A stretch of 64,000 bases of DNA, from the NCBI GenBank assembly GCA_044892505.1, contig CM097882.1:260338001-260402000 (forward strand), in the 5' to 3' direction. Position 1 is the first letter of the stretch; every line of letters starts with the position of its first letter. A program made the position numbers and the translations under genes. The notes under the pieces were generated by a model that did no database searches, was not told the origin of the DNA, and was given only the letters and a program-made list of their open reading frames with translations. This DNA comes from Schmidtea nova. Lineage: Eukaryota. Positions 176 to 38,676 of the stretch are shown here, piece by piece.

Positions 176-742
176 ATGATACCGAAAAGAAGATTGCGAC
201 TATTGCGAGCTCAGTCGCGGAAATCAACATTCTTAGATGTTAATGCAATCCCAGAAACAATTAGGAAGGCAGCGGAACGCCATCTCAGGGCGTGGAATCG
301 TAGTCACATAGATGCAAACGTGCGATCGGTGACATCCTCATTCAATACACGGATTCGGTGGGAAGGTGACCCATCGTGGCCGGCGTCTCCGAGCGTTCAG
401 ACACCGAGACAACAAAGATGATTCATACAGTTCGAGGACAAGCAGGCCAAACCCTGATGGGTACTTTCATTCAACTCCATGTCTGGTCTGGAATTCCGTC
501 AGTTGGGCTACAACTTGTTGGAACAACCGAGGTGTTTTCACGCCGGCGAGCTCCATCCTTATCTCAATGCTCCCGGAAATAGGGATATGAATCAACAGCA
601 GTGGAGAGAAGGAACGCGATTGTGGGAGGTGTTTACCTTCCGGGATGGACTCTGTTGGGATCCCTGTCCAGAAATCTATCAAGCCGATGGCAAGGGACTA
701 GCGAATCGAGCCTATGACCAGGAACTAGTCGAATTTCTGTGA
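176..742 (+). pseudogene. ORF A family (unknown protein), two internal TGA stops
   Basis: Track ORFs 176..421 and 479..742 share one frame. P*WVLSFNSMSGLEFRQLGYNLLEQPRCFHAGEL...LWEVFTFRDGLCWDPCPEIYQADG aligns with 38329-38676 PRWILSFSRIPANEFHQLDYILLGMPRRFYGSEL...IWEIFLYSSRLCWTPNPDLYQTNG. Confidence 0.75.
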
Positions 743-1012
743 AGATCTGCAACATTGTCATGCTAAACTGCTTGCATTTCGTAAATAATAAATAAATGTC
801 TTGTCAATTGTGTTGTTGATGGAATGCATGAGATGAAAAAGGGGTGTGATGCCGCTAAACTGATTGATGACTTTGGGAGTAGAACCTAGTTACAAAGAAA
901 CGGTCAATTATGATGAGACATAAAAAGAGGAAATGAGCCAGATAGGCGGAACCGTGGATGAATAGAACACACTAATCCACCCATATTTTTTAGATGTGTG
1001 CAGCGAAAACTC

Positions 1013-1549
1013 ATGACTACCGAGCAGAGGCAAAGGAATTCCTAAAGAGTCAAGGCTCTCGAAAGTCGGTTAAGGCAGTTGGATGCCGAGTACCAGTTGA
1101 TAAAGACGACTTGGTTCCACCCGGAGCGAGTAAAGAGCATCCAACAAGCCAGGTATCGTGCTGAATGAACGGCGGAAGAGCAGGCGCGAGAGACAGCAGC
1201 TGTCAAATTAGAGTTGGGCAATTACTTGCGGGCGTCTACCAAGGAGTTCACTGAGCAACAATTACGACCGCTCATACGAACCAGTACCTTCGATCGATGG
1301 GTACAGTCTACTAGCGTCTCGATGGGCGTGCAGACTGATATGAATTTAAGTCCGAGTTCAGACACCCCAGAAAGTGCTCAGAAAGCAGAAAGATTTAAGC
1401 GTACTAAACGAAGGAATCGGTTAGGCGCTAAAAGGCGGCGAGAAAGAAAGGAATATGCAGAACGGATCGGAATAGAAGTAGATCTTCTGAGCGGATTAAC
1501 CGAGAAGCAACTTCTGGCCGTCATCGACCCTACTGTGTTGTTAAATTGA
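1013..1549 (+). pseudogene. ORF B family (coiled-coil N-half, basic C-tail), internal TAA and TGA
   Basis: TTWFHPERVK...VKLELGNYLRASTKEFTEQQLRPLIRTSTFDRW matches the ORF B motif in 3469, 5499 and 39164; AATAAA at the stop. Confidence 0.75.
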
Positions 1550-2522
1550 ATAAATGTATTGTAGTTAAAATGTATCTTTACGAATGAATGTGGAACGAAT
1601 AATGATTTAACTAAAGGAAGGGGTGAGTATATTCAATTCATTTAAATGCCAAATGGACATGAGAAATCTAAATCAACCCTAGACTTAACTAATTTAAATA
1701 AATGTGAGGGACCGGAATAAAACCACACAAACCTTCTATCGGTAGTGGTGAACCCGTGAATAAATAAGGGAATAGTAACAGCAAGGTTGCTCACCTGCCT
1801 TATCATTTCACAACGTTGATACAGTTCCAACATGATGAGTAGTTAGGGATACATCATGGGTATCAGTGGGGGAAAGCGTTTATGTTGGCGAGGTTACCCT
1901 AACCAATAAAATCAAGTATAACCTCTGTTGTATATCTAACCTACAAACCAGCAGTAATAATAACAATAATAATATAATTTTCGCTTAATTATTTTTTTTT
2001 ACTTAATGTATTTTTCTAATTAAAGAAAATTATGTTTTCAATTAAAATATTTCTTTATTTGTTTTGGCATTTTAATGCCTTTTTTTAATGCCCGTCTATT
2101 TCATTTATTTATTAGGCCATTAAGTGCTTATTTATTTTCTTAATTGGCAGTTTAATGCCTTTCAATTGACAGTTAACTGCCTTTAATTTATGGAGAAAAT
2201 TTTCCCATTTAAAGGGAATTCCAAGTAATTTTTCTATTTTTTTAACTTTACTTTTAAAATTTAATTTGTAGAATTCGGTGATTTATTAAACTTTATTTTT
2301 GAAAATTAATTTATAGAATTCGATGATTTATTGAAGGATTTTTAAAACATTATTTAGATTTATGATGTTAAAGGTAATAATTTTAATTATATTAAATTTG
2401 AATAAATAATTTTTATGGTGATAATGCATATAATACTTGTAAGAATTAAAAACTAAAACTAACACTCTCGATTATCAATGATTTGAGCGAATACTAGAAT
2501 AAGGAAATTTGAGGGACCCTGT

Positions 2523-3023
2523 TTGTATGTTATATCTAGTATTATTTTCGTATTTTTAGTAACAAGCATGTTCCACACTGGATTACAATTTCGGGGTACC
2601 AGAGGAGAGTCGGCCACCTACAATATATCTATTGCAAATCTGGACGTTTACAATAATTATTTGGTTATGCATATGCCGCTCAAAAATATCCCAACGGAGC
2701 TGGCCCGTGAAATCCTCCATGAGCACCGAGAGGAATTCGAGAAAATCGGCGCTGTCCCTCCTTTTAATTTATTCTGAGACAGCCCGGCAGACATCATATG
2801 GCATGCAGCAAGGAGTGGCCGATCGACGTGGATCACCACTTCTGGCCTAATGCAACAAAATCCCACTGAAATTCCAGGGAGGTTCCAAATATATTATAAA
2901 GGCAAAATTCCCCAGGCAGAATTTCTGGGCCCGGGACGATTCGTGTTCGCTCCCGCGCCAACACCAAGCCCTACCGACTCTCCATTCAGCCCCTCGACGT
3001 TGAGTGAATCAGAAGAAAACTAG
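2523..3023 (+). pseudogene. ORF A family, one internal TGA at a conserved Trp position
   Basis: Frame continues past the stop at 2775-2777: PLKNIPTELAREI...PPFNLF*DSPADIIW...FQIYYKGKIPQAEF aligns with 27887 SLKELPPPILRTI...CPFSIWDTGRDRVLY...SRVIYWGHIPQGDL. Confidence 0.7.
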
Positions 3024-3468
3024 TGATGTGGAAATTATTGAGAACTAATTTTCGATTTGTTTTGTTTGTGTAGTTCGTTAAATTTTATGTTTAGTTGTTA
3101 TTTCATTGTTGTTGATAAATTAAGTGTTTAGTGTAGATATGTAAGATAATTACAGTAATTGGTAATTCACTATAAACACGAATGAATAACTTGGTAAAAC
3201 AATAAATAACAAAGATAGTAATCTAAAATAGGTATGAATAAACTTAGTTTTTGTAAAATAATAAATAAAGGAAAAAGTAGACTATACTAAACAGGCACAG
3301 GTTAGACGGGTCTGCCAAAGAAAGGCCGTGGAAGGTGATTGATAAAAAGTAGAGTAGTTTATACGAACCGAGTTGGAGTTGTGTAAGATTATCCGTATTA
3401 CTGTTAGATAGAATCATATAGTTAGAATTTTCTTTCATTACAAAGAAAGCTAGGGCTATAAACGAAAA

Positions 3469-3879
3469 ATGTCAGGACAGCTGAGGAGGAGGATTATCGA
3501 CATCGAGAATAGTTATTTTTCTCCTGCCGAGATGAAACAAGTAAATGACCGATTGCTGAGAGCGACACAAGTGATCCAATATCAGAAGAGAGAAATAGAC
3601 GCATTAAAAATCGAATTGAAAAATTGCCAATCGATCATAACTGAAAGATTTATAGATGGGATTCTGCGGGATTTGATTCGCCCAATAACGCTAGAAAAAT
3701 GGTTCTCCACACCGGACAAATCGGAAAATGCAGTCATAGAGGCGACGACGACAGCCCAGCCGCCAAAACGGAAGAGAAGAAAATCCCATTCGCAACGACG
3801 TCACCAAATGAAGCTGAAGTTGGAAACCGAAGCGAATAAAGTAACTATCGGGATGGACATCAACCGATCGAATCCGTGA
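3469..3879 (+). CDS. ORF B family protein, 136 aa, open
   Basis: SYFSPAEMK...LKIELKNCQSIITERFIDGILRDLIRPITLEKWF, basic tail PPKRKRRK. Confidence 0.65.
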   Translation: MSGQLRRRIIDIENSYFSPAEMKQVNDRLLRATQVIQYQKREIDALKIELKNCQSIITERFIDGILRDLIRPITLEKWFSTPDKSENAVIEATTTAQPPKRKRRKSHSQRRHQMKLKLETEANKVTIGMDINRSNP

Positions 3880-4501
3880 AAGTCTCAGATATCTTGTGTA
3901 TTAAAATTGTAATGTAATAAGGACGAATATATGTATAGTAATTCCGCGTTGTTTTCTTGAATAAGGTTCTCTGATAACTAAATAAACAATAACTATAGTT
4001 GTACATGACTAAAATGTAGGGAATAAAAGCCAATAAATGCTAAAAAGAGATCTACCAAAATGTAAACTTGCGATTTAGTGCAGAGAAGGGTTGAAATTAG
4101 AAACGGCCAGCGAACACCCGAAAGAGTGACCGGTGATGGGTGAGTGATAGTGTTGGGCCCACCAAGTGGTCTAAAACCAACAAAATAACAGTACAATTAA
4201 AACAACAAATGAAAATAATAAATACAAAAAACATAGAAAAATCGGAATTAAAAATCGGAATAAAATAATAAATAATAATAAATAAATTAACAGCAAAGAG
4301 AAAATTCGAAATTTACATTAGAACAAGCAGCGAGGGAGCCTGAAACAGAAAAATAAAGAATTTTATACAAGTAAAAGTGCAATTAATTGATTAATTACTT
4401 TGAAAATCAGGACCACCCAGCGAGAAACCTGAACCGGAAATAAAATAATATTTACAATAAAATAAAATAATAGACAGGTTTTGATGGACGGCCTGATCCT
4501 G

Positions 4502-4539
4502 ATTGGTCAATCTGACCAGCCAGATCAGTATAAATACCG
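4502..4539 (+). promoter_or_regulatory. CCAAT (ATTGG) plus TATA box TATAAATACCG inside E3
   Basis: Same TATAAATACCG at 46862 and 54824, TAAATACCGATC at 26723, and ATTGG...TATATAAG at 35972-36005, each upstream of family coding segments. Confidence 0.55.
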
Positions 4540-5025
4540 ATCCGAAAATCATAATTAGAGAAAATATTTTTGAGACTTAGACTTTGCTTAGAGCCTTAGT
4601 TTAAGCCTTTCTGTGAAAACATTTTACAGCATTTCGAGCGAAAATTCCGAACATTTATTTTGCGAGCAGAACATTAACTTAACGAATTGGAACAGTAAAT
4701 TTTATTTTGATTGATTAATTTATGTACCCATGATTTTATCATTATAATCTTATTCTATGTTTTGATTTTATCTTTATGCATTTAATTTATTTTAACTCAT
4801 GTGTATAGTTATGCTTCCTCGACTGTTCACGCGGCGAGGGAGCCAAAGTCGACGTCGTGGAGCCTAACGGTTTCACACGGCGGTTTCACCTTTTTATAAT
4901 TTTGTCACATTTCGATATTTAGGATGATTGCAATTTATGAATTTTATGATTATAGTTTTCAAATTTTGGTTGCACCTAGGATGAATCGGCACAAGTAGAG
5001 GGTATTATTATTATTAGGAAATACC

Positions 5026-5360
5026 ATGCGTCAGGAGGCATCCCGAAGGTCTAAGGTACCTTCCACCCAACATATTTTCGGCCATGCGAATTATTATTCC
5101 AAGGGACGAATAAGTTTATCAGTAAAGGGTCAAAAAATTTCACGATACGACAATGCGTCCAGGAGTCCCACACAACTAATACACTGGGACACATCCCCCG
5201 AAGCGAATTCAATAAATTGGGGCTTCGCTCATTTCTGCGCTCACGATCTTTCGGAAAGGAATATGGAATCGATCACCCAAAGTTCTCGCTGGAAAGACTA
5301 CGCCAATTAGCCATAAACAAGGAACTTCATATAAATTTTAAAAATATGAACGTTAAATAG
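5026..5360 (+). pseudogene. ORF A family, frameshifted
   Basis: GLRYLPPNIFSAMR (shifted frame) and TQLIHWDTSPEANSINW correspond to ORF A motifs LKxxP and (F/I)xWD. Confidence 0.5.
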
Positions 5361-5498
5361 TCGAATTGAATTTCCTTGATCATAATAAATTCTGTTAAAT
5401 GCGATTCATTTATTTTGTTTATTTTCCTCATGTTGCACAATAATTCATTTTAAATCGTGACTAAAATAAAGAATTTCAATTCATTAAAAATTTGCAGA

Positions 5499-6092
5499 AT
5501 GGATTCCGCATCACCACAGCAGAAAGAAATCGATAAATTATGGAGGATTCGAAGGGCTCAGGACAAAGAACTGGCCCAAACAAAAGTACAGTTGGCAAAA
5601 GCGGAGGCACAATTAGCTCATCTGCGTAAGAGTTGGTTTGCTCCTGTGCGGATGAAAGACCAGATAACTAAAACCGAGCGGGCTCAGAAAACAGCGGAAG
5701 ACTATAAAATGGAGTGGGAGGCAACTAAGATAGAGTTGCGGAAATGTCTCCACTCAGTGACGGCCTCGTATATAGAACGGGAACTAAGAGCGCAAATCAG
5801 ATCGGTGGCCTATCAGGGGTGGATCACCGAGGAAAAATCAGTGAGCTCAATCGGCACGGATGTCGAAGGCCTAATCGAGACTACTGTAGAAAACCCACAA
5901 CCAGTTACTGTGAGTGCTCCCTCAATCAGCGCATACCAAAAACGCAAGCGAATCGGCCAGAAGCTCAGAAGGCAGAGGAAACTCTTCGCCCAAAGATTAC
6001 AAGATCAGGTCGACAAGTTAGCCAATTTATCGGAAGCAGAACTGTTAGCCGAGATCTTTCCTCCAGAGGGGAATTTCGCCCACATGTTATGA
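5499..6092 (+). CDS. ORF B family protein, 197 aa, intact
   Basis: ATG at 5499 preceded by TTTGCAG. KSWFAPVRMK...TKIELRKCLHSVTASYIERELRAQIRSVAYQGW; basic tail QKRKRIGQKLRRQRK; AATAAA just downstream. Confidence 0.75.
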   Translation: MDSASPQQKEIDKLWRIRRAQDKELAQTKVQLAKAEAQLAHLRKSWFAPVRMKDQITKTERAQKTAEDYKMEWEATKIELRKCLHSVTASYIERELRAQIRSVAYQGWITEEKSVSSIGTDVEGLIETTVENPQPVTVSAPSISAYQKRKRIGQKLRRQRKLFAQRLQDQVDKLANLSEAELLAEIFPPEGNFAHML

Positions 6093-7276
6093 CAATAAAA
6101 TAGGCTATCATCCGTGTTGACATCTTTGTTATTTCTTAGTGTAAAGTTTTATTAATAATTAAAATAACTGAAACGTAATAATTGTACCCGACATAGGTTT
6201 TAAAGGCCACATAATTAATTCATAAAAAATGCTAACATTCGTAAATAGGTAAATAGAGTACAACATAGCTTTGTGAAAATAAACGATAAGTGCTGTAAAA
6301 TATAACAATAAATCTTTTGTGAAAGAGGCGTAAGTCCTTCTAACGGCAGCAATGGACCCGTAAACATAAATGAGGAGTAGTTCTAGCAATAGAGCTCACC
6401 TGCCCATCATTGTTTAACTCACCTAGCGCATCACCAACTTGGTTATCAAGGGAAATAATCGAGGGCGCTCGAGTGAGCAGAGTAAATATTTATGTATGAT
6501 CATGGATGGGGAATCCCTAGTCATCAGTAGCATTTTTTTAATCTAACCCCTCCGTGAACCCAGTAATAGTATGAATGAGACCTTCTATCGATTAAGCTAG
6601 AACCCGAACGATGCGACAAGTCAGGAGTAGTTCTTGTGAAGGAACTCACCTGCTGACTTGCGATCGGCTGTTATGCACATTAACAACGTGAATGAGTAGG
6701 GTAAATCACGGGTGCATGAACAGTAAAGCTTTTATGTGTGTGTTGGACCCTAGAGAGCAAGGAAGTGTATTTTAGTAATAGAAATTTCAGTGAGTTTAAA
6801 GAGTCAGGAAGTAAATTTGGGTTTTGATTTTGATTTTTCCACAACACACCAACAATATATTTAAAAATAATTATTTTTTGTTTTAGTTTTAATTAGTTAT
6901 TATTTAGTTATTTTTTTGTAATTATCATTATTACCATTATTACTTACATTATTACTATTATTTTTATTATTTCTAGAAGATTTAGTTTGCATTCAACATG
7001 AATGGTGGTGCTCCAAGGTAAAATACATTAATTTCAAGTTTATTTAGAAATGTAACCTAATATTTTAGTTTATTATAATAATACACATTGATATGTTTTT
7101 GACTGAGGATTTTTGGTAATAATTAATTTACACACATTTTATGATTTTAGACGTTTCTGGAAATTTTCTTTTCTGTTTCTACCGACATTTGCGAAAATTT
7201 TCCCAATTTCGTCATTGGTTTTAAACGAATTGGTCTATCACTCTAATTAGCTATTCACATTGGTAATAATATATAG

Positions 7277-7278
<2 letters not shown>

Positions 7279-7344
<66 letters not shown>
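7279..7344. repeat. (TA)n microsatellite
   Basis: Direct read; similar runs at ~11049-11124 and ~45903-45952. Confidence 0.95.
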
Positions 7345-7350
<6 letters not shown>

Positions 7351-8682: not shown

Positions 8683-8894
8683 AATTACTAGAGATATTTG
8701 TATTTTATAATATAATTAGGTTTACATGACTATTTTTAATAAAAAAACTGTTATTATTTTATCAAATTTAGTTTTTTATTATTGCATTTTATAATTAAAT
8801 TTTATAATTTTATTTTATAATTATTATATTTTATTATAATATTTTTATTATTTTTCCCATTACTGATACAAGACCAATACTATCTGGTTCTCGC

Positions 8895-8924
8895 AGCCTG
8901 TCGCTGGCTGTCATTGAAATACTT
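8895..8924 (-). pseudogene. Hsp70 micro-fragment (YFNDSQRQA)
   Basis: [13 protein letters not shown] matches the canonical Hsp70 [18 protein letters not shown] motif. Confidence 0.65.
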
Positions 8925-9141
8925 TGGAACTGTAAATGCACGATATTGTTGGCTTCCTCGACTTGTTAATGGAGTGAATCCTAGCATAAAGAAATGCAAA
9001 CATGGAAATGGAACCATGTTAAAAGCTAATTCTCTCAAATCAGCATTCAATTGACCAGGGAATCTCAAGCATGTTGTTACTCCACTCATTGTAGCGCTTA
9101 CCGAATGATTCAAATCCCCGTAAGTTAGAGTTGTCAATTTC
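8925..9141 (-). pseudogene. TUBB: Beta-tubulin internal fragment (~72 codons, no introns)
   Basis: [72 protein letters not shown]. Confidence 0.95.
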
Positions 9142-9440
9142 ATTACATCTATTCTCGCTTGTGTAAATTTCTCTAATTCAATCAGACATTTGATTCGTCG
9201 GAGTTTGGTTTCTTTCATCGCAATCGGGACTATATTGGATTGCTGAATCGCAATCCATGGGTGCATCGGAATATTTACCAAGTTTCATTAATGAAAAGGC
9301 ACGATTTGAATAACATAACGACATTAATAGCGGGAATTTACTCCTATTCATATTCAAAGATTCAGTATATCTATCGAATGCACCACAATAATCTCGTTTT
9401 TACGAGTTCATTTCCAATTTTATGAAGACCGACAATTGTT
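9142..9440 (-). pseudogene. TPR-repeat protein fragment (co-chaperone type), frameshifted
   Basis: GNELVK/DYCGAFDRYTESL...[50 protein letters not shown] reads as three consecutive TPR units. Confidence 0.7.
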
Positions 9441-9449
9441 TTTACTCGA

Positions 9450-11043
9450 TTCTTCACAGGCCAGCCGAAGAAATTATAAAAATACTTCCTTTGAGTAATA
9501 GCACGGTGAAAAGAAGAATTGACGAAATGGCAGAAGATGTTGAAAATTCTTTATGCGAATATTTAAAAAATTCTAAATTTTCAATTCAACTGGATGAATC
9601 AACTCTTCCCAATAATGAGTCAATTCTATTATCTTTCGTGAGGTTTGTGAAAGAAGAAAAAGTTTATGAAGAACTATTATTTGTAAAGAGTTTAAAAACC
9701 GATACTAGAGGGATAACAGTTTTTAATGTTTTAAAAAGTTTTTTAGTTGAAAAAAATATTCCTTTTACCAATATCTTATCTGTGGCAACGGACGGTGCAC
9801 CAGCAATGACTGGTCACTACAAAGGGTTTGTGGCTCACTTAAAGGAGGAGGTTCCGGGTGTAATCTTCGTGCATTGTGTGATCCATCGTCAGCACTTGGT
9901 TGCTAAAAATCTCTCTGAGCGCTTGCATACATCCCTTAATTTTGTAGTAGGCGATCAATAAAATTAGAAGTAAAGCTTCAAATGACAGATTATTTGGTCA
10001 GTTGTGTAAAGAAAATGATGAAGATTTTAATCGCCTGTTACATACAGAAGTTCGATGGTTGTCGAAAGGTGAATGTTTAACGCGATTTTTTAACTTATTT
10101 GATTCTATTGTTCAATTTTTTGAAGAAAAAGATAGTCAATTACGAATTAATTTAATCGAGTTCAAAAACGATATTGCATATTTAACTGATTTGTATAAAA
10201 TGTACAATGAAGTTAATTTACAACTACAAGGTGAAGAATTGAATCTAATTAAAACAAAAAGTGTTATTGGTTCGTTTTTGGGAAAATTGCTTATTTTCAA
10301 GCGGAACTTTGAGCAGAAAAATTTCAGAGATTTCCAGAGCTTATATTTTTTATCCCCATCAATCAAAGAAAAAGATTTACTTTGCTATCGCCAACACCTG
10401 GATGTTCTTTATATTGACTTTAAAAAACGATTTGAAGATATTATAACTATGAATATCCCAGATTAGGTATTAGACCCCTTTCATATGATTACACTTCAGA
10501 GGCATCAGATTTAGATGTGGAGCTTCTAGAACTCACAACAAATGAGGAACTTAAGTTCAAATTTAAAAAAGGGTACCAACAATTTTGACTGCAAAAACCA
10601 GTAGCAATATTATATCCAAGACTTTGGAAAATAGTTCAAAAACTTCTGATAGCATTTCCTTCCTCTTATTTGGCCGAAAGAGGATTTAGTGTAGTAACAG
10701 CTCTGTTTTCAAAAAGAAGAAGTCGAATACAAATTACTAAGTGTGGAGATTTAAGACTTTTTTTAACAAATTTTGAACCGAATATTAAAAAATTTATTGA
10801 AATGCACCAAGCTCATCCTTCGCATTAAATAATAATTTTTAATTTAGGTCTATTATTTTTATGTTCAAATTTAAAGAATTTTCATGTATAATGTTCTTTT
10901 TTTAATTAAGTTAATTTTTAAAATGTAAAGGTTAATCGGCAAAGTGATAAAGTTGGTTGTTAAAATTTAAAATTTGACTGGTACAGCATTCAATTTGGTT
11001 ATAAAAAAATAAAAATTTGCGTGGAAAATCTTGTAAATGAAAA

Positions 11044-12046: not shown

Positions 12047-13106
12047 TACTATTATTTATTTTGATTTTATATAATGCGAATTAATATTTAATTTTTCATA
12101 ATACCAATTAAACTAGCTTCGCTATTTAATTATCAATCAATGATGAGATCACTCGGACTTTTGGTTCCTATTGTTCTGATCATTCATATAATTATTAGAA
12201 TGAAAATGAAAGAGACCCTCATTACTGAATAAACATATACTATTCCAATCATAGCATCCTATGTCATTTACAGATCTCATAGAATCGAATTCTTAGCTAA
12301 ACTTTGAGCCAAGACTCTTGCTTGCGGTATGAATGCGGTGAACACAAAGATTGGCAGAGTTAAGAAACTCTGTCCATGGCAAATATTGTGTTTTCGGCAA
12401 TATATCGAAGATAGTTTAGTGATAATGAGTCCAAATTTATTCCGTACTCCGTTGTTTTGTTAAGTAATATGTATTTTGTCAAGATTGAATTCGTGGAATG
12501 CTTTGATAAATTCATTGCTTTGGATTTATGCGAATATTGTTTATGAACCCATGAGTATTGATGATTTCTGATAACAGGAAACACGGAAAATGATGGGATA
12601 TATTGTCGATGGCGTCACATCTATTAGCCCTACGTTGGTTAAACTCGAGAAGAACATGGAGAATTGTAATCTATATATCATCCTGGTCCGTGAATACATT
12701 GTCAATATGTTATATACTGAATGAATCTATTTTAAACATTTTCTTTTGATATTACATATATATTTGTTGAATAACCGTTTTATAGGAAACATACTACGAT
12801 TGGGATCAAGCAAACTGGTTTTATGATTGCATTGCCATCCAAATAAATACGCTAGAATTAAAAACAGTTGTTTTCTAGACTCACAGTTGAAGAGGCCATC
12901 TCAGTGATAAATAAGAGACTTTTCCATTTCGAAGAGAACAATAAGAAATTGATGACAAAAAACCATGTGTTAGAACGATGATTGGAGAAGTTTGACAAAA
13001 GTTGTAGTTATGAAATGTGCCAATATTATAATAATAATATTGTTTTAATATTAACAATTAAAAAAACAGTTGAGCGTTGTTTTTAAATATAAATATAATT
13101 TGTATT

Positions 13107-14315
13107 ATGAGTGAACAGACTTTTACTGGCGACCACGCAAAAGTGGAAACAATTCAAGCAGTTACAAGACAACAACGGAAACTCATCTTAGAGTCACTTC
13201 CGAAACAAGCACGAGATATCCTGAATTTTAATGTCAGGAAATTCAATGGAAGAAATACAGCAGAAGCAGAACTGTGGATGAAAGATATCGAAGATTGGCT
13301 TATGATGAACGAGTTGAGTCTAGTAAGCATTTTTGATTTATTATTGTCAGAAGAAGCTGGTATATTATGAAAGGATTATAAAATTCCAAATATTACCGAT
13401 AAAGAGGCAAAAGAATGGTTCAGTGACACATTCACAAAGAAAAAGTCGATCACTGATAGAATATGTGATTTAGCAAGAGTTGAACAAGAAAAAAATGAAA
13501 GATTTGCAACTTTTGAAATTAGAGTAAAAAAATTACTTGATGATATCTTCGATTGTGGATTATCCAGAGAAGAAATTGTGAGAAATATTGTTACCAATAG
13601 GGTCCACAATGAACGTTTAAAGGAGAATTTTGTTTCTAATGCCAAAATGTCAAGAGAAGAAATGCGAACATTAGCAAAGGTATTTGAATCAAACGATATC
13701 ACGGAAAGAAACGTGCGTATTGAAGAAATTCAAGCAGTGGATAGAAGGTCATATGCAAATGCGGTTCGAGAACGAAATACTCAGTGGGAGCATAAAAACA
13801 AACCAAAAGCAATAGTTCAAAATAACAGAGTATTTGAACCAAACCATCAGCGCAATATAACATATCAAGATAAACAATTTAATAGTAGTAAACCTATATC
13901 AGAAGATCAGAGAGACAGAAAAACGAATGAATATGAAGAAAGAAGACAATTACCAACCGTATCGATGAAGCATACTGCAAGGAGACTTTATAATAGATGT
14001 TGTGGATTGCCAGAGCCGAAAGAAGAGAAGTTGAAACCAGGCCAGTGTTTCTGTTGCGGGGAGAGCAATCATTTACGATTTCAGTGTCCTTTGAAAGATA
14101 GATGCTTGATTTGTGGCAAAACCGGACACACGTTTAGAGACTGCAATGTGATTAAGAAGAATTTCGAAAGGAAACAACACCAAGTATATTGTATACACGA
14201 TGAAGAACAAGATGATTCAGAAATAATTAATGAACCCCTTTTACATGATGTAGAGTATCAAAAAAACCAACGCGACCCTGTCGTACACATTTCGTCGGTG
14301 GGGTCGAGTCAATAG
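13107..14315 (+). CDS. gag: G1 gag (one premature TGA at 13368; two CCHC zinc knuckles)
   Basis: CFCCGESNHLRFQC and CLICGKTGHTFRDC. The G2 paralog has TGG at the stop position. Confidence 0.85.
14261..14306 (+). promoter_or_regulatory. -1 ribosomal frameshift signal (A AAA AAC plus hairpin)
   Basis: Heptamer is in gag phase; stem CGACCC(14273-78)/GGGTCG(14301-06) is extendable by G-U pairs; the -1 frame is open into pol. Confidence 0.75.
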
Positions 14316-14341
14316 GACAATCAAGAAATCGAAATGGAGTT

Positions 14342-17300: not shown

Positions 17301-17429
17301 AAATGGCGAACAGTACGAAGGACCTTTTGAAATTTTAAAATTCTTGTCACCAAGACAAGTAGCACTACAATTCCAAAACTCAGTAAAGACGAGACGAATC
17401 GAATGGTTGAAGAGATGGAAATCAAATTG
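14342..17429 (+). CDS. pol: G1 pol (PR-RT-RNaseH-IN)
   Basis: LWDSGASIS, YLDDIL, DTDAS, HKELCH...CQIC, TDRG, SNGLAER. A 1-nt loss in an A-run near 17295 shifts the GPF tail (QYEGPFEIL...IEWLKRWKSN*). Confidence 0.95.
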
Positions 17430-18661
17430 AAGAGGGGAAAGTTATGAAATGTGCCAATATTATAATAATAATATTGTTTTAATATTAACAATTAAAAAAA
17501 CAGTTGAGCGTTGTTTTTAAATATAAATATAATTTGTATTATGAGTGAACAGACTTTTACTGTTGTCATTCAATAGAGGCAGTGCGGTTTTGTTAGAATA
17601 ATATGACGAAACCATATAACCAAATTCAACTGCTCATGAAACAGAGTGAAAATGACTCAATCAAACGGGTGCATTGCAACTCACAATCCGGGAAATGGAT
17701 AGTGAGATTGACCAGCTGAGGATATAAAATTGGCTTACAGCAGATATATGCCATCTCAACTCCACGCAATTGTCAGAATTATTTCTCAAAGAGAAGAAGT
17801 ACATACTACAACAATGACAAAGAGGTAAAAGCTCGACAAGACAGAGCAAGTGCGCAATAAACACCGACTCCTTGGTCATTTAAAATTAATCTTATATTAC
17901 TAATTTTTGTTTTCTTGCGCATGTCTGACAACTAAGTGAATGATGATATATTGAATGTAATAATAGGTTAAATTTTAATTTGTTTTATTTTATTAGATAT
18001 TTCTAATTTTTATTATTACAATCTTATTTAAAAATAATCTTAAGTAATGAATTAATAGTAAATAGTGTTACAATAATTAAATAATTAGAATCATGAGATA
18101 AGCGAGGTTTTCCGAAAGATTAAAATTAACCATTAAAAGAGATAACGATATTAGTAGTTCGAATAAGAATAAATATACGAGTAAATGAGTGTATATTGTT
18201 AACAGAAATTTATATATTTTTTTATAGAAATGGAAAGAGCTCGGGCAAATAAATGACAAACTAACAAGATTTGAGGCAAATAACGAAAGACTGAAAATTT
18301 TGAATTCTATTGTATTTCTTTTTTTAATGTTTATTTTTGTTTATTTTAATGTTCTCGTGCGTACTCGTTATTAAACTAATAAATATTCTATTAATTTCAT
18401 TATCTTGGTTAATATCGAAATTAAATTTAGAATTTTTAGATTTTACTCATGGGTTTTGAGCCAGAGTATTTGACATGTATTATTTAAATAAATTCTCAAG
18501 GAATGTAAAGTTCCTATAATTAGAAGAAGAAACAATGGAACCAAAAGAATGAATGGACCTGCATTTCTCTTGGCGGCCCTTGAACCCATTGCGATATTTT
18601 GTCAATTATAGTTCTGGAAAGCGCGTTCACTTTGCAAGTATCTACCCTTTTGTTACATTAA

Positions 18662-23900: not shown

Positions 23901-26246
23901 TATCCATCCTACCGACGTCGATCAACTGAGCAAGCAGAAGTCAGAGGTGTACAAATGGACAGTCGAAATGTTGTGCCTTACAACCCATATTTAGCACTTA
24001 AGTACAACGCCCACATAAACGTCGAAGTCTGCACATCTCTTCGCGCCATCAAATATATGTATACATATTCAAGGGATTCGACTGCGCTAATGTTGCCATA
24101 ACATCGAATGGAGAGCCAGAATTGAGATACAATGAGATCACTAATTTTATAAACTGTCGATATGTGAGTGCACCAGAAGCAATTTGGCGTTTACGAGAAT
24201 ACCCCATGCACGATCGATCTCACAGTGTGATGAGACTTCCAGTCCATTTACCGAATCAGCAAAGAGTCATGTTTCAAGAAGGACATGAAGAAGAAGCATT
24301 ATTAAGAGCACAAACAGGATCAACTAAGTTTCAATCGTGGTTCAAACTCAATGAAAATGACATGAATGCTCGACAATATCTATACACTGAAATCCCTCAT
24401 CACTACGTATTTTCAAAGGGAAATTGGCAAGTACGCAAGCGAGCCGGTGAAAAAGTTGTCGCAAGAATGTATACAGTTGGAGTGAAGGATGAAGAGCGTT
24501 TCTATTTGAGAATTTTATTGCTACACGTACGTGGTGCTACGAGTTTTGAATCGTTGAGAACAGTAGATGGCGTTGTTCAAGATTCTTTCAAAAGTGCAGC
24601 TGCAGCGAGAGGCTTGCTTGAATCTGATGATGAATGGAATAACTGTTTAATAGATGGCGCCATATATTTAATGCCTAAACAATTAAGAGAAATGTTCGCA
24701 TATATTTGTTGTTTTTGTCAGCCTTCTCGACCTCTCACGTTATGGCAAAATCACGTTGCTGATTTCATACTTGACTACTTGAGAAATGATCCAGAAGATG
24801 TCGCGATCAACAAAGCTCTTCATGACATTAACTCAATTCTTAAGCAGCATGGATTATCGTGTGGAAGTATTGGCTTGCCAATACCAACAGGACACGCTCA
24901 TGTCAACGATGATCAGACATTTGACATTTTGGAAGAGGATCAAGATGCTGAAGAACGAATGTCAAAACTTAATGAGAAACAATTCGATGCATTTAATCAA
25001 ATCATAAGAACAATTCACAGTCCAAATTTAAGAACTCGATGTTTTTATGTTGATGGTCCAGGTGGCTCTGGCAAAACATATCTTTATGAGACACTTTTAG
25101 CATGCCTTCGAGGTCGAGGAGAAATCGCATTAGCATTTGCCACAACTGGAATTGCATCAACATTACTCAAGGGTGGAAGGACAGTTCATAGTGGCTTCAA
25201 ATTGCCTGTGCCATTGCTTGATACGTCTGTCTCATCTATGCGACTGAATTCACCTGAAGCTGAAAATTTCAGAAACGCCTCTCTTATTTTGATTGATGAG
25301 ATCACAACGTTTATGAAAAATGGATTACGTTGCATCGACAAGCTACTGAAAGAAATAATGAACAACAAAGCGAGTTTTGGTGGCAAAACAATTGTTGTAG
25401 GTGGAGATTTTCGACAGACGCTTCCAGTCGTTTCCCGAGGCATACGTACAGATATTATTGAATGCTGTATTAAATCGAGTCCATTATGGAATGATTTTGA
25501 ACAACTTACTCTATCGACAAACATGCGAAGTGAAGGTCAAAATGAGCATAACGATTGAGCATAACTGTTGAATTTTTAAATGAGCAAACTCCATCAGGCA
25601 TGCCTCCTCATGTATTATTGCTAAAGAAAGGTGTCGTTATCATGCTGCTGAGAAATTTAAACCCCAAAAAAGGACTGTGCAACGGAACTCGATTGATTGT
25701 GGAAGATCCAGGACGAAATTTAATTAGAGCAAGAATCATTTCCACATGCAATCGCAATGATATTGTTTTAATTCCTAGAATTGATCTCGCTCCAGCTGAC
25801 ACAACATTACCATTCATATTAAAACGCCGCCAATTCCCGATAATTCCCGCGTACGCTATAACAATAAACAAGGCACAGGGCCAGTCATTCGATCATGTTG
25901 GCATTCATTTGGAGACTGCAGTATTTTCGCACGGTCAATTGTATGTGGCTTTATCACGATCAAGAGTTGCAAGCCAAGTGAAAGTGTTCATTGAATCAAA
26001 TCCACGGCAAGGAAATTTATTGAATGACGAGAGACAATTCACACGCAATGTAGTTTTTCAAGAAGTTCTTCAATAAAAACAATTTTTTTGTCAATTTTTT
26101 TTTCATTCCATATATATAACAGAAATAATTTTCAAATTGCTTAAGAATACAAGAAATTGAATTTTTAATAAATATTTAGTATGTCAAACTGTTCATTTAT
26201 TTTATGATTTGTCAACGGGCGCCTTAGGCGCCTTGCAATTAACTAG
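20902..26246 (+). mobile_element. Full-length Helitron (RepHel disrupted)
   Basis: A|TC 5' end, 3' hairpin GGCGCCTTAGGCGCC and CTAG|T end; no TSD. Confidence 0.93.
21463..26076 (+). pseudogene. Helitron Rep/PIF1-like helicase, two frameshifts plus an internal deletion near 25555
   Basis: FITFT, EFQKRGLPHAHIL, GPGGSGKT, GGDFRQ, TINKAQGQS, GQLYVALSR. Confidence 0.93.
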
Positions 26247-27886: not shown

Positions 27887-28366
27887 TTGTCTAAAACAGA
27901 TGGAAAAGATGTCAATCGAAACATTCGTAGCATCTCAAAGGAGGGCGCCACTTCAATCGAATTCTCGACAACAAAAGCCATCAAAAGTCTAAAGGAACTA
28001 CCACCTCCGATTTTACGAACCATTAATGCTCAGATGTATAAGTGGAGACGAGCCTTCCGAGAAAAATGTCCATTCTCCATCTGGGATACCGGACGAGACC
28101 GGGTGTTGTACCAAGGGGGCCCGGGATGTCCAAATTCGGCCAATCAATGCTACTCGCCGAAATTTGGACGTATGATCGTAATAAATAATGGCCCCGATCA
28201 GAAACCTTCAAGAGTGATTTATTGGGGGCACATCCCACAGGGCGACCTCGCCGATTTAGGGCTAAACCTTTTCACGTCGCCACGTTCTCTTGGGAAAGGT
28301 CATGAGAAACACATGCCCGATTTCTCTCTGACGAGGATCCGACAAGCACCGACAAGCACCGATTAA
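27887..28366 (+). CDS. ORF A family protein (>=159 aa open)
   Basis: Carries all three ORF A motifs (LKELP, FSIWD, HIPQGDL); family promoter motif at 26723. Confidence 0.6.
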   Translation: MSKTDGKDVNRNIRSISKEGATSIEFSTTKAIKSLKELPPPILRTINAQMYKWRRAFREKCPFSIWDTGRDRVLYQGGPGCPNSANQCYSPKFGRMIVINNGPDQKPSRVIYWGHIPQGDLADLGLNLFTSPRSLGKGHEKHMPDFSLTRIRQAPTSTD

Positions 28367-32400: not shown

Positions 32401-32559
32401 TAGTTTTTAAAATTATAAGATATAATTAAAGTTATTGAGGAGCTCAATTTAAAATCAATAATAACTGATCTAAAAGTGAATTGTTTATTTGAAGAGAAGC
32501 TTGGCGGGGAAAAAAATATTCATTTGTTAAAGCTTGATGAGAGGAAAAGCCCACCGTTA

Positions 32560-33110
32560 ACCTCTGAATATCCTTTATTTCAGAATATTGATCATGGTGA
32601 TTTCTGCTGGCCACTTCCGTAATTCCATATATCCTTGAATTGAAATGGCTAATTTTTTATCTTGGGGCCAGATATACATTTTTGACTATTTTCCTATAGT
32701 AGTTTGTTATAGCTATCGATAAAGGAGTCATTTTTCTTGTTTCCGAACTGACATACTCTGCGTCAACGAACAATATTCTGTTGCGAACTTCTTCGAGATT
32801 CATTTCTTTCCTAACAAATGAAAGTTTTCTTTTCAACATTTCTTCTGAAATCTGCATCAATGTTGAATCATGTTCCTCTGTTGGCAGCATACACTGTCTC
32901 TCATTTCGTTCGTTCTCTATTCTCGTTTCCAAAACAATGATAGTCTCTTCGTTCGCTGCGCGTATGGGTTTTGCCATAATTTTTATTTTGAATTTTTCAA
33001 GAAGATAATTTCTTTAATTCCATTCACGGTTTGATGATATGCTCTTTTGATGACATGCAGGTAATATTCTTCTTTACTGGATATCTGAACTTCATCAGTT
33101 AATTTCATTC
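32560..33110 (-). pseudogene. DEDDh (REX4/ISG20-like) exonuclease-like fragment
   Basis: ILFVDAEYVS...PLSIAITNYYRKIVKNVYLAPR*KISHFNSRIYGITE resembles the ExoI motif and following beta-strand/GIT segment. Confidence 0.5.
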
Positions 33111-33834
33111 CCATTTGTCGGTGTAGTTTAAGCATCTAGATTTTTATTTTTCAATCATCTATTCTTAAATAATAATGTTAAAATGTTAAAATAGTACTAC
33201 TACGTTATCAAAATTGCATGCAAATTAATCATGTCTTACTACACAAATGTTTCTACATAGATGAATCTAAGGTCTCGAAGGCTCGGATCGAATGGTAGAA
33301 GGTCTGGATGTTTTTATTGATTCGTATAACACAATAGCGACGAGAATGGAGAGAAATATTGTTATACTAATGATAGTTATTAATAATATCACACATAATT
33401 TCTTTGTCATTGCTTAATAGTGTTGGGCCAGCCGAAATTAGTTGGAAACTACAACTAAATAAAATAATAAAGAAAGAAATTGAATTAGTTAATAATAAAT
33501 TACCCGACATTAGTAAGGAATCAAGAAATAAAATAAAATAACACGAGAAATAATTAGGGCAAGATTTTCCTATAGGCTAACTAGGCTTCATCCTAGGGCC
33601 TCATGATCATAGCAAAATTAAAATGTACATCTAGGTATTAATTAAAATATTGAAGGAAAGTTCCAACTTTTTTGATTATTGTGTAACCCTTCAAGTTCAA
33701 CAATTTAACAACAATTCAACAACATTTCTTAATTCAAATTACTATTTTATTTTTATTTATAAATAATAAATAATTAACTTTTTTAATGCGCAAAAATTAA
33801 TAATTCAAATATTTTATTAGAGATTCTAATCAAA

Positions 33835-34073
33835 GAATGAATAAAAGATTTGAAAGTGGCGCTTGAAAAAGCAAAAAGATGCTTCAATAATTAGAGATAA
33901 AGAAGCTAGCATCGATAACTACTTAAATGCATGTTCCAACTAGTGCCGTGTTTTTTGCTTTGTTTGTAAACTTTTTCCAAACACTGCATCTTATGCAACA
34001 GCATTAACTTCTGAAGAGTTTAATGATTGGAAAAACCCAGCTATCATTCAATCTCATGAAAATTCGGAAAATC
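33835..34073 (+). mobile_element. hAT N-terminal TTF-type zinc-finger remnant
   Basis: MNKRFESGA*KSKK and FNDWKNPAIIQSHENSENH; ends at the 34078 element terminus. Confidence 0.55.
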
Positions 34074-34077
34074 ATAG

Positions 34078-35700
34078 TGTTGGGTTGTTGATCGTCAATA
34101 TGACCTTGACGTTGCTACGGCTCACATCAACAACTCAACACATAAAACATTACATTAACCATCTTGTTGCCCGTCACAATGTAACGTTGGTAATGCAACA
34201 AATGGGTGGGTATTCGCAATCAGTGAGCGTCGAAAATTCGAAATTATGATTGACCGAATATCTCCTGGGTCCAAGGCTACCGACAGAAGATTTAATGCCA
34301 ATTTTGTCCCTTCCTACATGATTTATCTATAAGCATTCAATAATGTTTTAATCGGAATTTCCAAATAAATAATCTACATCAATATAAGTTTATTATTGCA
34401 TCAAAATAACCCATTTTCCCACATCAAAATATCAACAATTCATGCAAGGATCCATTTACGATGCACATAGCACAAGAACAAACAGAATGGAATCAATAAA
34501 ATCATACGTACAAGGAGTATTAAAGTTCTTTGGGTTTTCGAGATGCTTTTGTACCTTACTGTTACTGAATTTTCGATTTTTCCGATCAAAATCTAAAGCG
34601 TAATAAAATCAATTATTTCAATCAGTTTCTACACATTACATTATCAAAGAAAACAAGCATAATTGCATTTTTAGTTAATTCCCAAGCTCATACGCAAACA
34701 TATCATCACAACTCAATTCGGGGATCAATTATTCCTTTAGAAAATAACTATATTTGGGACTATTCAATTGCCATTATTTAGACCCGAATTTTTATTATTC
34801 TCGTGATTTCTTCAAATTATTCTGTTTTAATATTTAAAATTTAAGTACATTTCATTTATATACTAGTCATATTGTCTATCTTGTTTTAAAACTTATATTT
34901 AAATTTTTTCAAAATTTAATGTTAAGAATTTAAATCATCGCCGAGGCCTTAGTAACGACTTTGATTCAGTAAAACTTTCCTCTTACAGTTTTTAGTCATC
35001 GAATTTTGGGGTTTTTAACATGATTTAATTTTTTAATATCAATTTAAAATTTTTCTATCAAATTAAATTAAACAAGAACTCAACAAGAAAATTTTGTTAT
35101 TATTGAAATATTTTATAATAATCTTGTTTAAAATTGCGATAATTTTAGTTTCTTATCGATCTACACTTGCAATCCAATTGGCTGTTTTATTTTATATGGT
35201 TTTTCAATATAATATTGATTTTAAATGTAATTCAGATTTTTGAATTTCCCATTAACTATCAGGTAAATTTGATGATTTTTCATTTTGTTTGTTTTATTCT
35301 TGAGTTTACAGTTAGCATAATCTATAACCAATTCGAACCATTCACTAGCAACTGTATCAGGCTCAACTATTAATGCTTTTTACGATTTCTCATTAATAGT
35401 AAGTTACTTAAGTATTCCAATTTTTTATGCTTCTATCTCTCTCCCAGTGAACATCTATACCATCATTCGTCTGCAACCTCCTTACCCTGAAGACTCCTGG
35501 ATTTATCAATTTCGTGAATTCGCGTTGGAGATTTTTTTTCGCAATTAACTATCTATCGATTCTGGAATTTTATTATTTGTAAATCCTACAATGCAAGAAA
35601 ATTCGCTCATCAATCAGAAAGATTTCCCACCGATCGAGGAGACCTGAGTTCAACACTCGCACTACACTTCATCTGGACTCTGATTTGCAAATAAAAAAAT
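34078..35700 (-). mobile_element. Unclassified TG...CA element copy (minus strand, right end plus ORF A remnant)
   Basis: 34078-34325 is a close inverted match of 58380-58609, with patchy homology to ~35030/57950. Ends CCCAACA. DRWEIFLIDERIF at ~35600-35635 matches the ORF A WE(I/V)F motif. Confidence 0.75.
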
Positions 35701-35739
35701 TGTTTTGTTGTCTCGGATTTTTAGCAAATTTTAATTTAA

Positions 35740-37700
35740 TGTTGGCCAGGGGAAAATTTTTCTCCTTTGATAGCGTAACTATGGGAAATTGATAATATTG
35801 TAAACAAAGGTGAATTATATAAATCTCCAAGTTGATTGATCCGGCGGTTGGACTTCCGCTACAGGGAAATTTTTACTTCGTTAGTTAATGTGAAACTCGT
35901 TTTACTCTTTTCGATCAAGATTTTCTAATATACTGAGTGATGCGAAAATTTCTGACTGACTGAAAATTTTGATTGGCTGAGACAGCCACGAAAAAAGTAT
36001 ATAAGTAGACACTAAATTCAATGTTAAAAAGGTCATTTTTACCTTAAGGCATTGTACTTAGCAATTTTGTTGAAATTTGTGAATTGAATCTTGTACTTCA
36101 AATCGAACGAAGAAAATAAAGGTATCAGTTGTTGTTATTATGTGTTGTTAATTATAAATTTGATTAACCCCTCATGGTATTGTTGTTTAAAAATCAATAA
36201 GGACATGTCCCGACGATCTTGCGATCTGATGGGCGATAATTGGCCTCCCGACCCGACACTCTCTGAAGTGTTAGGCAGTGCGGCGTACTAGCGCTAAATA
36301 CGGCAGGGGTAAGGGATTGCACATAGGATAAACAAGAATGATTTCCGAGAACAATAAATTCAGTATTTTCACTTAGGATGTTAAAGGACCGACTGAGTAG
36401 TACTAGTATTTGATAAGTTAAAAGATGTTTTTATTCTACAGAGTATAGTGGACCCAATTTGTGACGACAAATAAGGGACACTAACATAATGATCCAGTGT
36501 AAGGAAAGTGAGGCACATTTGAAGTCGTTCACTTGCATCAAGTTATTACTGAGATTACAAAAGGGAATACCATCGAAGGATATTCAAATATGCGGACAAT
36601 AAGTCCGAATTATAAAACCATCGACACGTCGTTGAACAATCATTTTTCTATGGAGCGACAACCGACCACGTGCAGTGAGGTAGTGCAATAGTATCGTCGA
36701 ACAACAGCAGCTCAAAAATTTAAGATGAGGTAGGAAATTTGCGGTAGGAAATTTAAGGTCGTTCTCCAAGTAATAATTAATACCGTCTTTTTCCGAAAAC
36801 AAGACACTGTCTTATTTTCTTTTTTAGTCCAAAATACGCAGTAGGTCTTATTTTCGGGGGAAAGACAAAATATAAGTATAAGCTGGCGACCGGATCCAAC
36901 TCTGCATTTTTTCTCATTTCCTTGGTCCACCAGTTGACACAAGTAATTGTAGTCTGCACGCCATTTACGAACCATACGAAGATCCAGCATCTTCTCTTTA
37001 CAGAATGCTACAAGATTTTTACCTTGTGAGTCTTCCACAATTTCTTTTTTGTACTCGAGAGAATAGCCTTTTTGTTTTGTACTCATTTTAATTGGGATTA
37101 AAAATTATTTGCTAAAGTAAATAAAATCTATATGAGGAATTAATCAGAATTGCAGAGCCAAAATTAATAAAAATAGTATGCCTCATTTTTGCTCAATGTA
37201 TATTGCTGCTTTATGCTGTATTTTATAGAAAATTTTCAAGAATTTATTTTAAACGAACTGCAGCTGTAAATAATTAATTTCTTTAAATATTTTGTCTTAA
37301 ACTTAATTTAAATATGAGTATTGGTAAACCTTGACATATAATTTCTTATAATAGATTAATAGATTTATAATAATAGATTTATAATAGATTTATAATAGAT
37401 TAATAGCTTAAATAGCTTAATAATAGCTTAATTTTCTAACAAATTCTTTCAGTAACGTTAGTTAACTATGGCTTATTTTCGAGGGGATGTCTTATTTTAC
37501 AAAACGTTAAGAAAATTAAGCTAGGGCTTATTTTCAAAGGAGGTCTTATTTTCAGAAAAAGACGGTAGATTGTCGACCGTCAAACGATTGAACGAACATT
37601 CCCCGTGAAGAGATTTCATCAGCATAGCATGATATTCACATCAACACCGTGAGAGAGGGACTCGCCATATGTTTTTGCCATCCATCTAAAATATTGAGAC
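35740..37700 (+). mobile_element. Unclassified TG...CA element copy (left end, promoter, degenerate ORF A split by a MITE)
   Basis: TGTTGGCC start; ATTGG/TATA at 35972-36005; ATG segment ending GG|GTAAG; LQKGIP...IFLWSD and IPREE/FHQHSMIFTSTP match ORF A motifs. Confidence 0.5.
36783..37565 (-). mobile_element. pogo-family internal-deletion element retaining the N-terminal DNA-binding domain
   Basis: 23-bp TIRs (21/23 match, CCGTCTTTTTC[CT]GAAAA[CT]AAGAC), TA TSD; MSTKQKGYSLEYKKEIV...VRKW...RVGSGR. Confidence 0.85.
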
Positions 37701-38089
37701 CAAGTAGTATGATGTAGAATGCACAAATAAATGAATGAGTAATTTCTAATAATTAACGACGATTGTATGTTGGAAAAATCGACGGCACTGAATAAAAGCA
37801 ACAATACAATCGTAAATCAATTTTTGCGCTCGATTGATGAGGCGGATTTAATTTCTAATCTACACAGCCGTGTCTTACCTCAACGGACAGTCTGTAGCGG
37901 AACAACGGGTGAGAAAGAAAATTGATCCGATTTTCCCATGTACTGAGATTTTCGTGCCATGCCAACAGCTGTCGACAGTCGACTTGTGAATAAAAATTCT
38001 AGAAATCATTTCTATAAAAGTCGTCATTAACAAACTCGTGTTTTAGAAAGAAGAATCCAATTCGAAAATCCTCGCTAGAAGACCGGATC

Positions 38090-38676
38090 ATGAATATCTA
38101 TAAAACTACTATGTGTACAAGTGAACTTGCACGTTACCAGGAAACCGAAGCCATACGTCCAACCGTTTATTATCAAAACGGAAGGATCAACCGACCAGGA
38201 ATCTGGGCTCTGAAGCACGCCCCTTCCGACGTTCTTTATGACATTCACCTCCAGGCGAAAAACGGAGAAATGAATTCAAAAGGAAAGCACATTTCGGAAT
38301 GTGGTAAAATCTCTATGAAGAGCTACATTTGAAGGAGGGCCTTTATGGCCTGAAACTCATAGTATTAATATGCCACGATGACAAAACAATACCACGCTGG
38401 ATCCTTTCTTTCTCTCGGATCCCAGCCAATGAATTTCACCAATTAGACTACATCCTCCTCGGTATGCCTAGGCGATTCTATGGCAGTGAACTGCAAGAGT
38501 TCTGCAATCTACCACTCCCAATGCCAGAAGATTGGCGCAATTCATCCGAGTGAGTCCAGAGCGTACAGATATGGGAGATTTTTCTGTACAGTTCACGACT
38601 CTGTTGGACCCCCAATCCAGACTTATACCAGACAAACGGGACCCTGAAACAGGAATCCGAAATATATCAGGAATGA
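38090..38676 (+). pseudogene. ORF A family, one frameshift and one stop
   Basis: Clear homolog of 176-742 (see that alignment); ALKHAP motif. Confidence 0.75.

Follow-up and report, generated by a model that had tools for sequence, protein, structure and literature searches.

This analysis concerns an orphan open reading frame, ORF A, which occurs in several decayed copies in a 64,000-nucleotide stretch of the Schmidtea nova genome (assembly GCA_044892505.1, contig CM097882.1, forward-strand positions 260,338,001 to 260,402,000). The whole stretch is called the window below, and positions follow its own numbering. Two orphan genes lie within the long terminal repeat (LTR) of giant Burro-type Ty3/gypsy elements, and ORF A is the first of them; it does not represent a host gene family. 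The second gene, ORF B, follows ORF A in four of the five window copies, and all five copies of ORF A are disrupted by stops or frameshifts. Copy 1 (176-741, 187 codons with 2 internal stops) begins behind an acceptor-like TTCAG/ATG. It is followed by an ORF B at 994-1549 that carries a frameshift and stops, begins behind TTTTAG/ATG and has AATAAA at its stop. Copy 2 (2568-3023) has 1 internal stop, and its ORF B (3469-3879) is an open frame of 136 amino acids. Copy 3 (4981-5360) contains stops and frameshifts, and its C-terminal part alone scores; its ORF B (5499-6092) is open over 197 amino acids. Copy 4 (27900-28366) shows one frameshift near the start and has no ORF B after it. Copy 5 (38090-38676) contains frameshifts and stops and is followed by an ORF B remnant at 39137-39412. 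All of these frames lie on the plus strand.

These five places are recovered by an ORF A profile based on 110 natural copies from other parts of the genome, none of them derived from the window. The matches are 149-763 (E 7e-97), 2550-3017 (E 1e-37), 5184-5336 (E 6e-05), 27938-28363 (E 5e-56) and 38365-38685 (E 9e-25). The sole additional match in the window with E < 3 is 41667-41846 (E 2.9), and the reversed window used as control gave 0 matches. An earlier note made from the sequence had counted seven copies. The copies at 176, 2568, ~5000, 27900 and 38090 stand, and those at ~35600 on the minus strand and at 36440-37700 do not. The sharing of motifs that the note had seen between the copies at 176 and 38090 is borne out by six-frame comparison (36% identity over 91 amino acids, E 1e-16), and weaker six-frame protein links join 176 with 27998 and 5187 with 28226. 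In a tree, where the two short rows from the window have long branches, the copies at 176 and 38090 fall into clade A1, those at 27900 and ~5000 into clade A4 and that at 2568 into clade A2. Profile-profile comparison connects A1 with A4 (probability 80%, E 1e-5) and A2 with A4 (95%, E 1.5e-8), and a direct link between A1 and A2 is not significant (E 0.07).

The family is far larger than the window suggests. The assembly searched comprises 1.25 Gb at ~30% GC and includes three very large contigs. Searches with four window copies of ORF A gave 3869, 3648, 1594 and 2897 candidates, of which 150 were scored in each search and all 150 were significant; the four candidate sets may overlap, and candidates are not copy counts. 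We conclude that the family has at least hundreds of members and likely thousands. Similarity visible as protein and not as DNA, as described in the note, holds inside the window and fails for the genome, where DNA relatives at 80-95% identity exist. The picture of a free-standing family of few copies has to be given up in favour of an accessory gene in the LTR of a giant retrotransposon, present in hundreds to thousands of copies. As a protein family ORF A is real; ORF B and the LTR boundaries had been overlooked.

ORF A, with or without ORF B, sits inside decayed LTRs of ~2.4-3.6 kb that have TG..CA termini and a target duplication of 4 bp. LTR 1 is a solo LTR of the A1 clade of ~3.2 kb, which covers 1-1953 of the window. 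It starts with TGTTGGG ~1,250 bp before the window (G000:C1:260336749), ends with CCAGCA at 1953 and is flanked by the target duplication GTAA. The 3' part of LTR 2 (A2 clade) spans 1958-6854 and ends with CACCAACA at 6854; its 5' end was not located. It is interrupted by LTR 3, a nested solo LTR of the A4 clade at 4151-6565 with the target duplication ATAG and with an inverted CCAAT box and TATA at 4499-4535. Copy 4 of ORF A, also of the A4 clade, lies in a truncated LTR remnant with homology from ~27592. LTR 7, an A1-clade remnant at 33421-39412, starts at 33421, with its first part at 33421-33554, and contains other inserted repeats up to 35963. It retains CCAAT/TATA at ~35970-36003 and a donor-like AAAG/GTA at ~36121, and its 3' end was not found. 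The three LTRs listed first run on the plus strand, as does LTR 7.

Both discarded copies fall within LTR 7. The region at ~35600 on the minus strand is part of an unrelated repeat inserted into this LTR and has no profile match. The region 36440-37700 is spacer between the LTR 7 promoter and the copy at 38090, plus an element with terminal inverted repeats, and gives neither a profile nor a tblastx match. Two ORF A paralogs within LTR 7 find no support among its relatives. The inserted element (36781-37567, ~790 bp) has terminal inverted repeats of ~25 bp and TA ends, and we take it to be a miniature inverted-repeat transposable element of Tc1/pogo type.

Elsewhere in the genome, DNA homology around copy 1 has sharp edges on both sides and defines a 3.2-kb unit from TGTTGGG to CCAGCA/CCAACA. 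A 4-bp duplication is present in two of three other solo LTRs with both ends visible, and the third has one mismatch. Solo LTRs such as those in the window are explained by decay after insertion. Among 30 LTR 3' ends, one runs on into a primer-binding site (PBS), TAAATTTGGGGGCTC; the remaining ends have unrelated flanks, except for one duplicated pair that shares its flank from the LTR end onwards. The junction of LTR end and PBS occurs 172 times in the genome and 0 times in the control. The PBS complement is found behind a tRNA T-loop motif in 1106 occurrences, which form tandem arrays where listed, and the tRNA is presumably tRNA-Pro. One tandem array with a 308-bp period, at G000:C1:459.61-459.66 Mb, contains a tRNA-like 3' end complementary to the PBS of the element.

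Outside the window, paired LTRs that are 99.1-99.9% identical and carry both A and B flank four elements of 25-46 kb (29.5 kb, about 25 kb, and 46 kb including nested insertions). Target duplications of 4 bp flank all four. Two complete elements were reached by following five PBS junctions (LTRs 99.7% and 99.1% identical, with open A and B in each), and two A2-clade LTR pairs of 99.8-99.9% identity bound 25-kb elements. In the 29.5-kb, A1-clade element, ORF A aligns with window copy 1 without gaps at 38% identity over 184 amino acids. In a Pfam scan the interior of this element contains a RING ORF, followed by one long frame that encodes both a CCHC knuckle and a fusion glycoprotein of Monjiviricetes type and is interrupted by stops and frameshifts. 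Reverse transcriptase (RT), RNase H and integrase follow in this order, and after them ankyrin repeats and a RING-TRAF-MATH ORF. In the two elements scanned, the env-like fusion glycoprotein (PF24664, E 9e-69 and 2e-76) lies between gag and protease/pol. A conserved and just partly purine motif precedes the 3' LTR in all four elements.

This interior layout matches the description of Burro/GYPSM1, giant Ty3/gypsy elements of dugesiid planarians with env placed between gag and pol, and we base the identification on this match (PMC6431247). Burro has been described from planarians only, which makes a dugesiid flatworm the likely host. Shared features are the size of about 25-30 kb, the gag zinc knuckle, the in-frame env-like glycoprotein, protease, RT, RNase H and integrase, the ankyrin, MATH/TRAF and RING cargo, which was detected in the interiors we scanned, and thousands of copies (PMC6431247). 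Differences are seen as well. BIR and BCL2-like domains gave no Pfam match at E<=0.01 in the subset of ORFs scanned. The scanned A2-clade element contains gag, env, protease, ankyrin and TRAF, without RT, RNase H or integrase matches in the seven frames scanned, and is likely a non-autonomous, env-bearing element. It belongs to a group of young 25-kb Burro-like elements with gag, env, protease, ankyrin and TRAF at L172-L177 (G000:C2:64.52 Mb, C1:88.35 Mb), likely a non-autonomous family. The text of PMC6431247 describes no ORFs, splice signals or structured RNA within the LTRs.

The cargo raises the possibility that ORF A, like the IAP, BCL2 and TRAF genes of Burro, manipulates processes of the host cell, for instance apoptosis or ubiquitin signalling. 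Several genes of this kind are carried by Burro, and the Burro1 IAP region is reported, second-hand in an excerpt of PMC13465017, to protect stem cells. These cargo genes are, however, recognisable host captures in the interior, whereas ORF A is located in the LTR and has no host homolog or fold match. We consider this function unlikely.

Selection was estimated as the ratio of nonsynonymous to synonymous substitution rates (dN/dS), pairwise by the Nei-Gojobori method (NG86) on naturally open frames, with pairs picked by protein similarity. For ORF A, dN/dS is 0.23-0.30 at dS 0.3-0.7 and 0.16-0.24 at dS 0.7-1.5, which agrees with the past purifying selection suspected in the note. Among the closest pairs, which are few, it rises up to 0.5-0.6. 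Over 94 pairs the ratio is 0.27 in frame and 1.15 and 1.20 in the shifted frames, so that the coding frame is not near 1. ORF B gives 0.17-0.31. The pattern is the one expected if active lineages were under selection and inserted copies then decayed neutrally. A host multigene family, or a non-autonomous element unrelated to Burro, would fit the finding that most copies stand alone with unique flanks. Against it, near-identical paired copies flank Burro interiors together with a PBS and 4-bp duplications, and the dN/dS of the closest pairs as well as the predominance of broken copies are those of dead-on-insertion repeats. Such an origin is refuted for the A1 and A2 clades and is overall hardly credible. 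The order A then B is kept at 26/29, 21/24 and 21/24 loci, 68/77 in sum. That ORF A lies in the LTR, is linked to the Burro interior, precedes ORF B, was under purifying selection between lineages and decayed after insertion, we regard as practically certain.

The LTRs carry a set of expression signals around the two genes. An inverted CCAAT box and a TATA are found ~370-400 nt from the LTR 5' end, and most A1-clade LTRs have a conserved AAAG/GTA donor ~120 nt past the TATA. Acceptor-like signals stand in front of an early ATG in 22 of 45 A frames and 33 of 42 B frames, compared to 45/550 (A) and 43/436 (B) control upstream ATGs, or 8-10%. AATAAA follows 38 of 50 A frames and 36 of 40 B frames against a background of 25%. 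With these signals, A and B are predicted to form alternative last exons on the 3' side of the LTR promoter. Judged from these signals, the LTR promoter probably drives a short non-coding exon that is spliced to either A or B, each with its own poly(A) signal, and every LTR, solo copies too, could then express the two genes.

At 20 PBS-linked loci, A is present in 16 and B in 16 within 1.5 kb, and neither is present in 3. Two of these three, L088 and L089, share an LTR that retains the promoter and a conserved RNA element described below, without the A/B block. A and B are therefore dispensable in cis. The related LTRs of L088 and L089 measure roughly 1.6 kb, and that of L084, also without the block, about 0.5 kb. 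A second conserved GC-rich, hairpin-like stretch was seen ~100-200 nt past the predicted donor (L102:3970-4103), also in ORF-less LTRs, with related stretches in the window at ~36230-36330 and ~4810-4880.

The last ~250 nt of the LTR are conserved at 87% DNA identity, compared to about 69% for the ORFs. Within them lies a structured RNA element of ~180 nt that consists of a GNRA-capped stem, a second hairpin and a pseudoknot. In the window it is located on the plus strand at 1728-1905 near the 3' end of LTR 1, at 6332-6520 in LTR 3 and at 6577-6756 in LTR 2. Of its 34 pairs, 26 vary on both sides, and 87.6% of cells are paired compared to 36-46% with the partners slid. Its covariation score was reached by 0 of 500 shuffles. 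The element has 137 matches across the sampled loci and the window, and it is common to LTR clades whose ORF A proteins share just 10-17% identity. A search of Rfam returned nothing credible, and folding of single sequences gave weak z-scores of -0.5 and -1.1. The element contains a near-invariant CUYACCUG motif, which resembles the U1 5' end or, on the opposite strand, a splice donor. The RNA may serve in export, packaging or the control of splicing, or it may be catalytic.

The ORF A protein has a length of 165-190 amino acids. Its predicted structure shows a helix followed by a beta-rich domain and forms a compact alpha/beta fold (predicted local distance difference test, pLDDT, 77; predicted template modelling score, pTM, 0.74). 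In agreement with the note, no known domain was recognised, and ORF A is neither gag nor env nor any other known viral domain. Homolog searches covering near lengths passed 0 of 11 candidates with a single protein and 0 of 1945 with a 75-sequence profile. The sole match in a representative library of 1.84 billion sequences (E 7e-5) was rejected as an artefact, since it is a tandem-repeat sequence. The best E against PDB sequences is 0.024. Pfam gave none at cut-off on 75 members, with a best E of about 0.001 and DUF3024 in 4 of 75, and of 3 pattern matches in viral contigs 0 were confirmed. The ESM Atlas held no usable match for ORF A or ORF B. With the ORF A model, Foldseek found no match at E<=0.001 in PDB or BFVD, and VIA reached a best Z of 3.0 with a root-mean-square deviation of 4.4 over 95 residues among 48,161 chains. 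This missing fold match is no proof of a new fold.

A structural or particle-associated component of a viral-like cycle, or an enzyme in it, would be a further reading of ORF A. The env in the element makes particles plausible, and the compact alpha/beta model is suitable for such a component. However, ORF A lies outside the polyprotein, matches neither capsid nor matrix nor any other viral fold and, with respect to an enzyme, has no invariant residues. We regard this reading as very improbable.

ORF B has a median isoelectric point (pI) of 10.2 and contains an Arg/Lys-rich helix and long helices, with a coiled coil and a basic tail. Its profile search passed 0 of 4863 candidates, PDB returned designed coiled coils only, and a fold search with its model (pTM 0.31) found no match.

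On its way to the PBS, a genomic RNA of 25-30 kb that starts in the LTR would have to get beyond a donor, a pair of acceptors and a pair of poly(A) signals. Complex retroviruses overcome a comparable difficulty by means of early regulators made from spliced RNA and a structured element in cis, and we therefore favour A and B as trans-acting regulators. The basic ORF B would bind the structured RNA at the LTR 3' end, ORF A would serve as cofactor or transcriptional activator, and the resulting switch would allow genomic transcripts to extend past the splice and poly(A) signals in the 5' LTR of the element. That ORF A is an LTR-borne orphan gene and, together with ORF B, a trans-acting regulator of the element's own full-length RNA has in our view an even chance. 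By analogy, A and B may be the early products of a switch of Tat/Rev or Tax/Rex type; we hold this to be somewhat short of even and favour it over counter-silencing and over the host manipulation discussed above.

Several points weigh against this interpretation. The regulatory role of ORF A is deduced entirely from position, pairing and selection, and no homolog or fold yields a functional hint. Its alignment has no invariant residue. Its pI varies from 4.4 to 11.3 and a basic N-terminus is confined to certain clades, so that nucleic-acid binding as a role common to the family is less well supported. The dN/dS pairs are non-independent and were selected for protein similarity and open frames, the acceptor test leaves out half of the A frames, and the shuffle control ignores relatedness while the RNA structure was derived from the same sequences on which it was tested. 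Neither a transcript nor a splice junction was observed: no GT-AG joint occurs among 8 listed in four runs of unrecorded type for a young LTR, a result that is uninformative either way. At three of the five PBS sites followed, a second LTR was absent within the stretch examined; one of the three has the same interior at 82-91% and a short ORF-less LTR. For the A4 clade no full element was found, and the one pair tested consists of unrelated LTRs at 72%.

The same data can be read as an arms race, in which ORF A would be an LTR-encoded counter-silencing protein directed against the piRNA (PIWI-interacting RNA) and heterochromatin control of Burro by the host and not involved in RNA processing. 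SMEDWI-2 silences Burro1 in planarians, as stated in an excerpt of PMC8532177. The fast divergence of ORF A between clades (10-17% identity to the A1 reference) under purifying selection would fit such a conflict, as would its dispensability in cis. ORF A shows no homology to known suppressors, however, and neither its fixed pairing with ORF B nor the conservation of the RNA element would be explained. Counter-silencing is improbable, if slightly less so than host manipulation. Regulation of the element's own RNA by A and B remains our preferred reading. In its strongest form, Burro LTRs would be self-contained two-gene units behind the LTR promoter, in which a new-fold A and a basic, Rev-like coiled-coil B act on a pseudoknotted, so far undescribed RNA whose U1-like motif counters splice sites, as an independently evolved circuit of the complex-retrovirus type; this form is less likely than not. 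If true, thousands of solo LTRs in a regenerating animal would spread the products of a regulatory circuit that belongs to an invertebrate gypsy element.

Coding sequence within or overlapping the LTR is known from the superantigen of mouse mammary tumour virus (MMTV), nef of human immunodeficiency virus (HIV) and tas/bel2 of foamy viruses, which are expressed by splicing. These genes lie in U3 or just upstream and are read from the 3' LTR only. ORF A and ORF B likewise are coding within the LTR, and spliced expression is predicted for them. In contrast to the retroviral genes, they are placed after the TATA, which makes each LTR a predicted self-contained unit, and there is no sequence similarity. 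ORF B may also resemble proteins of the Rev/Rex/Rec type, of which Rec is described in an excerpt of PMC7615088 as a Rev/Rex homolog that exports unspliced RNA. As far as sequence can indicate, the likeness would include oligomerisation-type helices, an Arg/Lys-rich helix, a Leu-rich C-terminus in most clades and the vicinity of a conserved structured RNA in the LTR. ORF B has no sequence or fold match to these proteins, and ORF A, which is devoid of the Arg-rich helix and Leu-rich tail of Rev type, has no counterpart among them. The Ogre/Tat plant retrotransposons also have multi-kb LTRs and extra ORFs of unknown function; these ORFs are found in the internal region and not in the LTR (PMC6431247).

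We found no description of ORFs within Burro LTRs in the literature, although figures or supplements of the primary Burro papers may annotate them. The element type is known, and the LTR-borne two-gene cassette with its RNA structure is apparently undescribed; should A and B already be annotated, what is new would be reduced to the arrangement of splice signals, the evidence for selection and the RNA element. Burro is highly abundant in planarian genomes, and one such element reportedly supports stem cells and regeneration. The conserved pair of orphan genes, together with a conserved RNA structure, would account for the great length of its LTRs and raise the question of how a 25-30 kb RNA passes the splice and poly(A) signals of the 5' LTR. 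Solo LTRs, usually inert with respect to coding, could express proteins from many loci, because the LTR promoter precedes A and B. ORF A is also a target for structure determination, with a reasonably confident model and no structural match.

The window is otherwise full of transposon debris. Two small gypsy-like elements lie at 13006-17562 (123-bp LTRs, 100% identical) and 40533-44923 (110-bp LTRs, 99% identical), neither with an ORF A or ORF B match. Frames at 21460-26076 contain a 69/207-bp internal repeat and are presumably a Helitron-like Rep/helicase. Fragments at 49631-51843 we take to be Polinton/Maverick-like (packaging ATPase, DNA polymerase B and a TBP-like frame); longer relatives of this stretch occur at L077-L081 and L105-L106, often nested with Burro copies. 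By our own assignment, 9392-10466 is a hAT-like transposase remnant, 8880-9284 on the minus strand a beta-tubulin-like fragment and 61051-62499 an Ulp1/SENP-like protease frame.

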